From an uncultured Pseudomonadota bacterium (GTDB lineage Bacteria > Pseudomonadota > Alphaproteobacteria > Rs-D84), in the NCBI GenBank assembly GCA_900313285.1, contig OMQP01000001.1, forward strand, positions 1-40,141: a stretch of DNA of 40,141 bases, in the 5' to 3' direction. Under the pieces are notes generated by a model. It was given only the letters and a program-made list of their open reading frames with translations, was not told the DNA's origin and searched no databases. This document shows, in pieces, positions 34,104 through 37,719 of the stretch (positions are counted from its first letter, which is position 1; every line of letters begins with the position of its first letter). Made by a program: the position numbers and the translations under genes.

Positions 34104-34132
34104 TTGCACAGATTCGGTCAAATTGGTATAAT
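34104..34132 (+). promoter_or_regulatory. strong promoter-like site TTGCAC-17-(TGg)TATAAT upstream of the pilL-like gene
   Basis: -35 at 34104-34109 and an extended -10 at 34124-34132. Confidence 0.5.
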
Positions 34133-34164
34133 CATATATAATAATTAAAAGGAAAGGAAAAAAT

Positions 34165-35088
34165 ATGTTCCAAAAAACATGTGTTTTTGCAGTGATTGCT
34201 GGTTTGTTAAGTGCCGCGTGTGCCGCAGACGATGGCGTGCAACAGATTGTTACTTCTGAAGTTTTCTATGATGCTGGTCAAACAGTTGAAGAAGTGGCCG
34301 AAGAACCAGAACAATTTGTTCAATCAGAAGAAGTTGTTTACGAAGAAGTAGAAGCCCAAGATTATGTCGCAGGGGAAGTTGATTCTGATGTTCCAACATG
34401 GCCATTGGCGGGATCCGAAGCGGATGTTGAAATTGCATGCGCTGGACGTGAATGTGCTGAAAATAAAATTGTTACCAAAGTTGGTTCTGGATTGGTAATT
34501 GAAAACAATATCAATACCAAGGGCACAGGTTGGACGGGGGGTCCAAACATTATGAATGGTACACAAATTCCTGCAGGATTTGATTATGAATGTGCAAATA
34601 ATGCCGAAATGCCTTTGATGCGTCGTGAAATGATGGAAGATGATGGTGGCAGTGTTTTGGCAATGTCACGCAGCGGACATAAAAATTGCAATAAACAGGC
34701 AGATTCATATGCTGTGTTTGCACAACGTGCAGGGTTTAATCCTGAAAAAACATGCAATAAATCCTCTGGTAATGACAGTGAAATTTCTGTAAATGAATAT
34801 GTTGATGAAGAAGCACCTGCACCAGTTCAAGATCAGGTTCGTTCATGGGTTGTTGCAAATGGTCAAACATTACGTGAAGTTTTACAAAGCTGGTGCGATA
34901 AAGAAGGTTGGGATTTGGTTTGGACAACATCTCGTGAATATCCAATCGAGGCAAGCGCTGTATTCAAAGGACGTTTTGTAGACGTCGCATCTGCGTTGGT
35001 TCGTAATTTTGAACGTGCAACACCGATTCCATATGCAAAGTTTTACAAAGGTAATCGTGTGTTGGTAATTTCGACCACAGAAGAATAA
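34165..35088 (+). CDS. PilL/TcpQ-like protein (type IVb pilus secretin-associated)
   Basis: Signal peptide, possibly a lipoprotein (LLSAAC). Acidic linker. The C-terminal SWVVANGQTLREVLQSWCDKEGWDLVWTTSREYPIEASAVFKGRFVDVASALVRNF matches the TcpQ/PilL C-terminal domain as I remember it. Confidence 0.6.
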   Translation: MFQKTCVFAVIAGLLSAACAADDGVQQIVTSEVFYDAGQTVEEVAEEPEQFVQSEEVVYEEVEAQDYVAGEVDSDVPTWPLAGSEADVEIACAGRECAENKIVTKVGSGLVIENNINTKGTGWTGGPNIMNGTQIPAGFDYECANNAEMPLMRREMMEDDGGSVLAMSRSGHKNCNKQADSYAVFAQRAGFNPEKTCNKSSGNDSEISVNEYVDEEAPAPVQDQVRSWVVANGQTLREVLQSWCDKEGWDLVWTTSREYPIEASAVFKGRFVDVASALVRNFERATPIPYAKFYKGNRVLVISTTEE

Positions 35089-35121
35089 AATATACCCGAC
35101 AAAGGACGGTAGGAGAAAAAC

Positions 35122-36753
35122 ATGAAGTTTCATTTTAATATTGGTTTAATTTGTGCTTTGACAAGTTTGATTCTTGGCGGTTGTACTTTGCATCAGTCTG
35201 CGAAAGTTTCTGCAGAGGTAGATCAGAATTTTGTTAATGCATATGAAGCTTTTGAAATGTCAAAGGCCCCCCGTGCCAAGGTTGCAAGTGGCGATACGGT
35301 TTCTATGTCCGAAGGGGTGTGGTTGGGAAACAAATCAACCGTGTTAGAACATAAAAATAAATTACCATCTAAATTTGAAACAGATACAGGTATAACAATT
35401 TTATTAAATGAACCTGTTACATTACAGGTTTTGGCAAATGACATAAATTCTATTACTGGTATTCCTGTAAAAATCGATAGTCAGGTTGATAATGAAAAGT
35501 TAAAAAAGACAGTTGATGTTGCGTATACTGGAAAATTGTCTGGTTTGCTTTCACAAATTGCAACAGATTTAGATTTGCTTTGGTATTATAACAAAGATTC
35601 TATTGTGTTCTATGAAACAGAAACCAGAACATATACTTTGTATGCGCTGGGGACAGATGTGTCATACCAATCGTCTGTTCAAACAGACAGTGGAAATCAC
35701 GTGTCATTAGAATCTACATTAAAAGAATGGGATGAAGTTGAATCAACAATAAATTCTATTATAAATAATTCCAAAAATGCACAATTTACTGTATCTCGCA
35801 GTTTGGGAACAATAACCGTCACTGCATCGCCATCGATTTTGAATCGTGTTGGGGAATATATCGCAAAACAAAATAAACGTTTGTCTCAATTAGTGACAAT
35901 CGATGTCAAGGTTTTACAGGTATCATTAACAAATGAATCTGCGTTTGGATTGAATTTGGCTGCTGCGATAAATTCTGCATCGGGATTAAATATCGTTGCA
36001 AATCCAAAAAATAATTTAGCAACAACTGAAGCGTCCTCTATGAATGTTGCAGTGTTATCTAATGCTGTATCTGCGGCAACCGGGGCCACACACATAGATG
36101 CGTCTGGTAAAGTTGTCGAAGGGGCATATACTAATGAACAGATTAATAATGGTTCAATGGCAAGAATCGCTGGAACAAATGCTTTGATAGAAGCATTGGC
36201 AAAGCAGGGCAAGGTTTCATTGGTGACAAACGTTGGTGTTACAACACGTAATAACCGTGTCGCACCGGTTACAAATACAAAAACAACAGGATACATCAAA
36301 CGTTTTGAATCAAGAACATTCACAACCGTAGAATCAAGTACTGTTGACCAGGATGATTTGGAAACAGGATTTTCAATGCAATTATTACCGAACGTTTTGG
36401 AAAATGGAAAAATATTATTGTTGTTCAAAATGTCTGTTCGTGAATTGTTGAAAATGGCAACACAAACTATCGGTGCGGTTACATTACAATTACCAGAAGT
36501 TGAAGAACGTTCCTTTATGCAGGAAGTTATCATGGAATCTGGTCAAATGTTGGTTGTTTCCGGATTTGAAAAACAGAGCAACAACGACACAAGATATGGT
36601 ATTGGGGATGCTGATTTCATGGCGTTGTCTGGATCACGTGATACTGCTGCAACCCGTGAAGTGTTGGTTGTTATCTTAACACCTCAGGTTTTGGTCAGTC
36701 CAATGGATGCCGAACGCAGTATCCAACAACATTGGGGTGCACCATTAAATTAG
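35122..36753 (+). CDS. PilN/BfpB/TcpC-type lipoprotein secretin (type IVb)
   Basis: Lipobox LILGGC. 543 aa. The C-terminal secretin domain is GFSMQLLPNVLENGKILLLF..QEVIMESGQMLVVSGFEKQ..REVLVVILTPQVL. Confidence 0.7.
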   Translation: MKFHFNIGLICALTSLILGGCTLHQSAKVSAEVDQNFVNAYEAFEMSKAPRAKVASGDTVSMSEGVWLGNKSTVLEHKNKLPSKFETDTGITILLNEPVTLQVLANDINSITGIPVKIDSQVDNEKLKKTVDVAYTGKLSGLLSQIATDLDLLWYYNKDSIVFYETETRTYTLYALGTDVSYQSSVQTDSGNHVSLESTLKEWDEVESTINSIINNSKNAQFTVSRSLGTITVTASPSILNRVGEYIAKQNKRLSQLVTIDVKVLQVSLTNESAFGLNLAAAINSASGLNIVANPKNNLATTEASSMNVAVLSNAVSAATGATHIDASGKVVEGAYTNEQINNGSMARIAGTNALIEALAKQGKVSLVTNVGVTTRNNRVAPVTNTKTTGYIKRFESRTFTTVESSTVDQDDLETGFSMQLLPNVLENGKILLLFKMSVRELLKMATQTIGAVTLQLPEVEERSFMQEVIMESGQMLVVSGFEKQSNNDTRYGIGDADFMALSGSRDTAATREVLVVILTPQVLVSPMDAERSIQQHWGAPLN

Positions 36754-36770
36754 TATATATATAATAAGAT

Positions 36771-36802
36771 AAAAACATCCGCATTTCTTGCGGATGTTTT
36801 TT
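36771..36802 (+). terminator. rho-independent terminator after the secretin gene
   Basis: aaaaaCATCCGCatttcttGCGGATGtttttt. Confidence 0.8.
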
Positions 36803-36834: not shown

Positions 36835-36876
36835 AGAACAAAAGAAAAGGGGAATAAAGTCATGAAAGCCGCAGAA

Positions 36877-36908
<32 letters not shown>

Positions 36909-36958
36909 GGGTGTCTTTGTAAAATAATATTATCCATAATCGCAATCGCGATAATAAC

Positions 36959-37004
36959 CCCCACATACGCAAAAGATTCAACCCCACATACGCAAAAGAT
37001 TCAA
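36959..37004 (+). repeat. perfect 23-bp tandem duplication (ccccacatacgcaaaagattcaa x2)
   Basis: Copy 1 is 36959-36981 and copy 2 is 36982-37004, and they are identical. The unit length is not a multiple of 3. Confidence 0.98.
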
Positions 37005-37719
37005 ATAATCATATAGAACCAAGTCCAACAAACGATTGTGTCGAATCAACATTGGGTACAGCAACTGGTCCTGCAAATTTGGAAGCAGATTGGACTGCAA
37101 ACACATTAACAATAGATTGGTATAATGGTGATACAAAATTATCATCAAATACATGTACATATGATGGACAAATAATATTACCATCAACGAACCCAGAAAA
37201 AACGGGATATACATTCCGTGGTTGGCAGGTTAGAACTGTACGACAATGCAGTTTAAAAGATTTTGCTGCAACCGTAGGAGCAGCGTCTACAAGTGTATAT
37301 GGTTCAGGAAGGGGGTTTATAGAAACAGATCCTATGAATGACAGAACTGCTAAAGCGGATGTCTTTGGTTTAACAGAAAAAGGCCAATGGGCAACAAATT
37401 TTGATGGTGGTGTGGTAAAGGGTATCAGTATATGTAGTAGTACGCCTTCCAATACCTATAATCAAGTTGTAGATAATGTATCTGCTGACAAAGGTGATTA
37501 TTGCTGGTGTAAACCAACAAGTTTTACTTTAAAAGAAAATGATATCATTGGTGAAACGTGTATGATTATATCTTCAAAATGGATTTATGCAGAAAAAGAT
37601 TGTTGGAACTGTGCTTGGTATTGTGCTAATTATGCAAAAGGGGATCATGCTACGAAGGTCGCTTACAAAACAAGTTTGTTTAATAATTTTTAATCATTTC
37701 TTAATAAAAACGAATACAC

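Follow-up and report, generated by a model that had tools for sequence, protein, structure and literature searches.

In the bundle-forming pilus (BFP) of enteropathogenic Escherichia coli (EPEC), the secretin BfpB and its partner BfpG form a 17:17 complex (PMC12531336). The N-terminal domain of BfpB, which is lipidated, both anchors the ring and holds the N0-like BfpG (PMC12531336). BfpG and TcpQ have this N0-like fold, and TcpQ is a homologue of BfpG (PMC12531336). Here we describe a comparable pair of genes, pilL and pilN, at positions 34104-36802 of a 40,141-nucleotide stretch of DNA (contig OMQP01000001.1 of assembly GCA_900313285.1) from an uncultured bacterium of the alphaproteobacterial order Rs-D84. 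This whole stretch, hereafter the window, is a complete contig (C31) of an assembly that comprises 859 kb in 67 contigs, is 87.6% complete and has a G+C content of about 35%. The pair encodes a TcpQ/PilL-like protein and a PilN/BfpB/TcpC-type lipoprotein secretin. Very probably the unit provides the outer-membrane part of a type IVb pilus machine of the R64 thin-pilus/BFP kind that is encoded on the chromosome and whose remaining genes lie elsewhere in the same genome. The locus was compared with 80 species-level relatives whose secretins are 81-95% identical, all of them gut or rumen metagenome-assembled genomes named Candidatus Enterousia or Alphaproteobacteria.

Two further systems serve as references. 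The toxin-coregulated pilus (TCP) of Vibrio cholerae likewise combines a lipoprotein secretin, TcpC, with a periplasmic partner of the TcpQ family, for which the domain PF10671 is named; this likeness is one of family and description. Unlike the Enterousia genes, those for TCP lie side by side on a pathogenicity island. The second reference is the thin pilus of IncI1/R64-type plasmids, whose operon (pilI-pilV) SPI-7 and PAPI-1 type elements carry too. An IncI1-type Salmonella plasmid has, in one contiguous block and in this order, pilI, a TcpQ-domain protein gene, pilM, pilN, pilO2, the genes for the platform, pilin, transglycosylase and peptidase, and pilV; in its gene table, which is described as incomplete, neither PilP nor an ATPase appears between pilO2 and the platform gene. 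The features of the unit in the window are as follows.

34104..34132, forward strand: promoter of sigma-70 type, TTGCAC-17 nt-TATAAT with extended -10 (TGg), read from the sequence
34150..34158, forward strand: Shine-Dalgarno region AGGAAAGGA 5' of pilL, read from the sequence
34165..35088, forward strand: pilL (PilL/TcpQ/BfpG-like), 307 aa, from the open reading frame (ORF) and PF10671
34840..35073, forward strand: TcpQ (N0-like) domain of PilL, aa 226-303, from PF10671, phmmer and AlphaFold2 (AF2)/Foldseek
35122..36753, forward strand: pilN (PilN/BfpB-type lipoprotein secretin), 543 aa, Cys21 codon at 35182-35184, from the ORF, profiles and lipobox
36193..36693, forward strand: secretin pore domain of PilN, aa 358-524, from PF00263
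36771..36812, forward strand: intrinsic terminator with a 13-bp stem, 5-nt loop and T run (stem-loop 36771-36801), read from the sequence

Profile and structural searches confirmed the identity of both products as proposed in a first-pass annotation made from the letters of the window. That annotation had named the second gene a lipoprotein secretin of the PilN/BfpB/TcpC kind. PilN matches the Secretin family PF00263 with 47 bits against a cut-off of 27.5 (50.7 bits in the whole-genome scan). Among the NCBIfam models it fits that of the PilN family, TIGR02520, best by far, with 247.3 bits against 91 bits for MshL. The lipobox LILGG|C is present with its cysteine at position 21, and a lipobox occurs in 85 of 86 orthologues, the sole exception being a truncated locus. 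PilN is colinear with BfpB (PDB 9u5s_A) over aa 33-524 in segments 33-117, 128-302 and 352-524 (E 3e-40), an alignment that spans the N-terminal region, N0, N3 and the pore. No other secretin match occurs in the assembly, and a tblastn search with PilN returned one hit in the closed genome of a relative (958,618 bp).

The first gene had been assigned a C-terminal domain of the TcpQ/PilL type, and PilL indeed scores 65.2 bits against Pfam TcpQ PF10671 (cut-off 27) over aa 226-303, while phmmer aligns aa 220-305 with the BfpG chain 9u5s_R (E 1.7e-13). An AF2 model built on an alignment of 47 orthologues is confident only at aa 222-305, where the predicted local distance difference test score (pLDDT) is about 90. 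When searched with Foldseek, this domain superimposed on BfpG 9u5s_R with a template modelling (TM) score of 0.85, a root-mean-square deviation of 2.0 A and an E-value of 4.4e-7, with 33% identity across 84 columns of the structural alignment; the next-best folds were VirB7 and secretin N0 domains. The protein carries a signal peptide of the signal-peptidase-I type at aa 1-21 with cleavage at ACA|A. Because of this signal, and because many orthologues have no cysteine in the signal peptide, PilL is predicted from sequence to be a soluble periplasmic protein in this clade and not a lipoprotein.

The N-terminal portion of PilL, of about 200 residues (window 34165-34840, aa 1-225), is acidic and of low model confidence, and for aa 28-216, where pLDDT is below 50, no fold could be assigned from the AF2 model. 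Three motifs of the N-terminal region are conserved (WP..G, GW[ST]GG and MPL....M.DDG), and the residues W79-P80, G125-G126, M149-P150-L151 and D159-D160-G161 are invariant across the order. Other families do not share the six cysteines that the window's copy has. This region might extend to the cell wall or to the layer formed by PilO and PilP.

The two genes form a single promoter-to-terminator unit with both reading frames intact and on the forward strand, in agreement with the promoter and terminator proposed initially. They are spaced by 33 nt and each is preceded by a Shine-Dalgarno sequence; the element AGGAAAGGAA is found again in the leaders of pilL orthologues. The 29-nt promoter block CTTGCACAGATTCGGTCAAATTGnTATAAT, including its 17-nt spacer, is almost invariant: 77 of 79 species loci retain it. 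The flanking intergenic DNA and PilL itself (median identity 57%) diverge. Within the spacer, TTGcAC-N7-GTCAA forms an imperfect inverted repeat and is a possible operator. The promoter core of 23 nt occurs only once in its own genome, even with up to five mismatches allowed. An antisense ORF inside pilN (35886-36533) was treated as a chance frame.

No other pilus gene is present in the window, as had been noted at first, and the same is true within 10 kb on either side of pilLN in all 80 related loci except one, which has pilins. The rest of the machine was found on other contigs of the same genome, namely C25, C35, C29 and C21. Contig C25 (5.6 kb) carries, in order, the 3' end of lpxC, a small lipoprotein gene, pilO, pilP and the genes for the ATPase and the platform. 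PilO (416 aa) matches PAP_PilO PF06864 with 41.1 bits (cut-off 26.7). The PilP-like protein (232 aa) scores 30.4 bits against TIGR03021, whose cut-off is 34.65, and sits between PilO and the ATPase as expected. The assembly ATPase, PilQ (545 aa), matches T2SSE with 223 bits, and the platform protein, PilR, has two T2SSF domains and runs off the contig end. Upstream of pilO lie a terminator after the small lipoprotein gene and an extended -10 element (TGCTATAAT). The only prepilin peptidase, of 167 aa, is encoded at C35:11234-11737; Peptidase_A24 (49 bits) is its only match, and no methyltransferase domain was detected in it. The partner genes found are all open frames, with pilR cut by the end of C25.

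Two pilins, each about 150 aa long, are encoded at C29:11521-11985(-), with a score of 23.2 bits (cut-off 22) against PilS PF08805, the type IVb pilin domain of R64 and Salmonella, and at C21:14603-15058(+). Their N-termini follow the pattern MR(E/Q)(Q/E)SG|RS(L/M)IE, reading MREQSG|RSLIE on C21 and MRQESG|RSMIE on C29. An operon at C21:8676-12554(-) encodes three larger proteins (443, 401 and 459 aa) whose N-termini resemble those of pilins. They are 47-54% identical to their counterparts in the closed relative and matched neither PilV nor any other family; we regard them as candidate tip adhesins or minor pilins. The genome as a whole contains one secretin, one PilB-type assembly ATPase and one platform protein. 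Besides this ATPase, a VirB11-like ATPase of 325 aa is the sole member of the T2SSE family to exceed the Pfam cut-off, and scans for secretin, T2SSE and T2SSF revealed no type II secretion system (T2SS) or other secretin-using machine. The small lipoprotein on C25 was considered as a PilM equivalent and rejected, having no family match and being absent from the contiguous operons of relatives described below.

In the closed relative the pilus genes occupy five chromosomal sites.

119-126 kb: three large pilin-like genes and pilin A
220.9-225.5 kb: pilO-P-Q-R
341.3-344.0 kb: pilL-N
356.3 kb: pilin B
592.0 kb: prepilin peptidase

The distance between pilLN and pilOPQR is 118 kb in this genome and 120-133 kb in three further genomes in which both halves lie on one contig. 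The dispersal is therefore real and no assembly artefact. Around the pair, the local order sufB(-) orf180(-) / pilL pilN / rpsT(-) plsY recurs in a large majority of these 80 loci. In 79 of them pilL directly precedes pilN, and no gene intervenes between them in relatives either.

Outside the close relatives, the arrangement is different. Secretin and ATPase coordinates were compared in 16 genomes of Rs-D84. The two are separated in all four tested genera whose secretins are at least 73% identical to that of the window (the window's own genus and three sister genera), and they lie 2-3 kb apart in 11 of the 12 tested genomes outside this split clade. The latter comprise two other genera of the same family, which have the most divergent secretins of the family (61-65% identical), and nine of ten genomes of other Rs-D84 families, in every case with both genes on the same strand. 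Five of these loci (the two same-family genera and three genomes of other families) were fetched, and each holds a single operon, pilL-pilN-pilO-pilP-pilQ-pilR, again with pilL directly before pilN; neither pilM nor the small lipoprotein gene is present in the five. The remaining six, genomes of other families, have secretin and ATPase about 2-3 kb apart on one strand. Since the operon is contiguous in the most divergent genera of the same family as well as in other families, and is split in all four close genera, the contiguous pilL-N-O-P-Q-R operon is ancestral in Rs-D84 and the Enterousia state is a lineage-specific split. The break between pilN and pilO arose within the family, probably once. 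The contiguous form has a pilN-pilO gap of 34 nt and no terminator, whereas the window has a strong terminator downstream of pilN. A promoter-like site, CTTGC(A/T)...TATAAT, lies upstream of pilL in the contiguous operons as well. In two of them, one from a same-family genus and one from another family, rpsD is directly upstream of pilL, a flank that may point to where the operon originally lay. The Enterousia halves are found elsewhere, pilLN in a suf/rpsT context and pilOPQR in an lpxC context.

The pair thus only looks orphaned, because the lineage split an ancestral six-gene operon and scattered its parts. The first-pass annotation had offered two explanations for the isolated pair, a split pilus system or a secretin recruited for another task. 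Partner genes in the genome and the operons of relatives support the former. According to the latter, PilN and PilL would work independently of a pilus, for example by exporting the adjacent phase-variable Cys-rich protein or the two secreted proteins encoded at 38.7-40.1 kb. The self-contained transcription of the unit and the presence of several genes for secreted proteins close by are in line with such a role, and some type IVb systems release soluble proteins, TcpF and CofJ being examples. The genome nevertheless holds a complete set of pilus assembly genes built around a single secretin, a single assembly ATPase and a single platform, with no T2SS or comparable machine that might use the pore, and the pair is co-operonic with assembly genes in relatives. 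The proposed cargoes fare no better: the Cys-rich gene adjoins pilN in only one of the 80 loci, rpsT and plsY lie between pilN and the gene for the 261-aa secreted protein, and both cargoes are absent from the contiguous operons. Recruitment of the secretin away from a pilus is accordingly very improbable, and neither of the two suggested exports is upheld.

The resemblance of the TcpQ fold to the C-domain of Xanthomonas VirB7 in the Foldseek search raises another alternative, in which the PilL-PilN pore serves a VirB/VirD4 type IV secretion system, or DNA uptake, without a pilus fibre. Genes for such functions are present: VirD4 in the window at 645-2915, the VirB11-like ATPase at C54:3786-4763, VirB4 at C39:1971-2537 and the ComEC competence channel at C9:4096-4917. 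They are unclustered, as are the pilus genes. We consider this alternative most unlikely. The operon of relatives joins the pair to PilO, PilP, PilQ and PilR and not to virB genes, the genome retains pilins and a prepilin peptidase, and type IV secretion systems make their own outer-membrane core.

Conservation bears on a third alternative, that the pair is a decaying, non-functional remnant of a pilus operon from a mobile element. The closest annotated relatives are indeed on conjugative IncI-type plasmids, and the operon is broken. Set against this, the secretin was found in all 22 genera and in 150 of 151 genomes sampled across the order, and across the 80 species loci the median identity of PilN (83%) is above that of SufB (77%) and S20 (80%), with PlsY at 69%; the ATPase is 79-83% identical to those of genus relatives. 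With both ORFs intact, the promoter almost invariant in 77 of 79 species and the partner genes open apart from the truncation of pilR, decay of the system is barely conceivable.

Several observations nonetheless weigh against assignment of the unit to a type IVb pilus machine. PilN, at 247.3 bits, remains below the equivalog/trusted cut-off of TIGR02520 (287.65), so it is a divergent relative of that family and no formal equivalog. The PilP score is marginally under its cut-off, and the pilin leader of six residues with arginine at +1 is atypical for type IVb pilins. The assembly itself is 87.6% complete, and C25 stops within pilR. PilM and a PilV shufflon were not found in the genome; a PilT-like transglycosylase was not found either, but no search was aimed at it. 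Finally, no promoter motif common to both operon halves was found in the genome. A common operator joining the halves was rejected on the same ground, the pilL promoter core having no second genomic copy.

Comparison with the reference systems places this machine among known kinds while demonstrating its divergence. Like the EPEC BFP pair (PDB 9u5s), it consists of a lipoprotein secretin of similar length (543 versus 535 aa), colinear throughout, and a partner with the N0-like TcpQ fold, the two genes acting as a pair. Unlike BfpG, whose PDB chain has 114 aa, the partner is a protein of 307 aa with an N-terminal extension of about 200 residues, and the system is chromosomal and order-wide with the pair apart from the rest of the machine. 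With the R64-type thin pilus it shares PilL with a TcpQ domain, PilN, PilO, an ATPase (T2SSE), a platform (T2SSF), a pilin with the PilS domain and a short peptidase of the A24 family, in addition to a putative PilP, and the L-N-O-P-Q-R order of the relatives agrees with the plasmid order. It differs in that PilN has only 25-27% identity with the plasmid protein, in that pilI, pilM (between pilL and pilN on the plasmids) and a recognisable shufflon pilV are missing from the Rs-D84 genes, and in that these genes are chromosomal, off mobile elements and fixed across the order. The short Enterousia prepilin leader with its arginine at +1 and the distribution of the Enterousia genes over five chromosomal sites, in place of one operon, are further differences. 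Scattering over several loci with separate promoters is also known from the type IVa pil genes of Pseudomonas and Neisseria. Type IVa systems work with another class of secretin, PilQ, and its pilotin PilF/PilW, with an alignment complex of PilMNOP and with ATPases for retraction. This genome shows none of them; it has one PilB-like ATPase and no PilT. The system is therefore a known kind of machine in a new, divergent version, with an unusual but explained gene arrangement.

By analogy with the BfpB-BfpG complex, PilN would be lipidated at Cys21, sorted to the outer membrane and assembled there into a multimeric channel for the pilus fibre. PilL would be exported via the Sec pathway, and its C-terminal N0-like TcpQ domain would bind the periplasmic face of the secretin ring and stabilise it, probably with one copy of PilL per secretin subunit. 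The rest of the machine is supplied by the same genome: PilO, PilP, PilQ and PilR from C25, the peptidase from C35 and the pilins from C29 and C21. On the way to Candidatus Enterousia the operon came apart between pilN and pilO. The pilLN half stayed in place behind the promoter-like site common to relatives and now has a terminator at its end, and the pilOPQR half carries a promoter-like site of its own.

Our best guess is that the pilus attaches the bacterium to a partner cell or to a surface, a reading we prefer on account of the three large tip-pilin-like proteins of the fibre. DNA uptake comes second; it is suggested by the presence of ComEC and, in the closed relative, by dprA near pilN. 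The machine might conceivably secrete soluble proteins as well, and nothing ties such secretion to the neighbouring genes.

The gene 3' of pilN has features of its own. It occupies 36862-37693 and encodes a Cys-rich surface protein with the 'Listeria-Bacteroides repeat' (PF09479). Soon after its ATG at 36862 lies an (AC)14 tract (36881-36908), and a perfect tandem duplication of 23 bp spans 36959-37004. As assembled, the ATG frame and the frame of the body (ORF 37052-37693) are one base off, so this copy is phase-OFF. A paralogue with the same MKAAEIYTHTHT start is in frame at C54:80-925(-).

Genomes of Enterousia and other Rs-D84 members are small (about 0.9 Mb, below 1 Mb), have incomplete glycolysis and few transporters and are suspected to depend on partners; one genome description of these organisms reported type IV pili only for a different lineage (PMC12306168). 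The pili of Rs-D84 thus seem to have gone unnoticed, probably because their genes are divergent and scattered. Our analysis documents a complete and highly conserved pilus machine for the order, beyond what that description contains. It also offers an ordinary cause, the splitting of an operon, for an apparent orphan secretin in a reduced genome. The fission can be dated. One half kept its place behind the pilL promoter-like site and the other has its own. More speculatively, and less likely than not, the type IVb pilus may be an organelle that is fixed on the chromosome throughout the order and defines this lineage, and not an accessory pilus of mobile elements; it would then be a device for partner contact or for DNA or nutrient uptake; such a status would explain the presence of the secretin in nearly every sampled genome and its conservation above SufB and S20. 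A universally retained fibre with three large tip-pilin-like proteins is an obvious candidate for the contact apparatus of these bacteria and may guide their imaging and enrichment.

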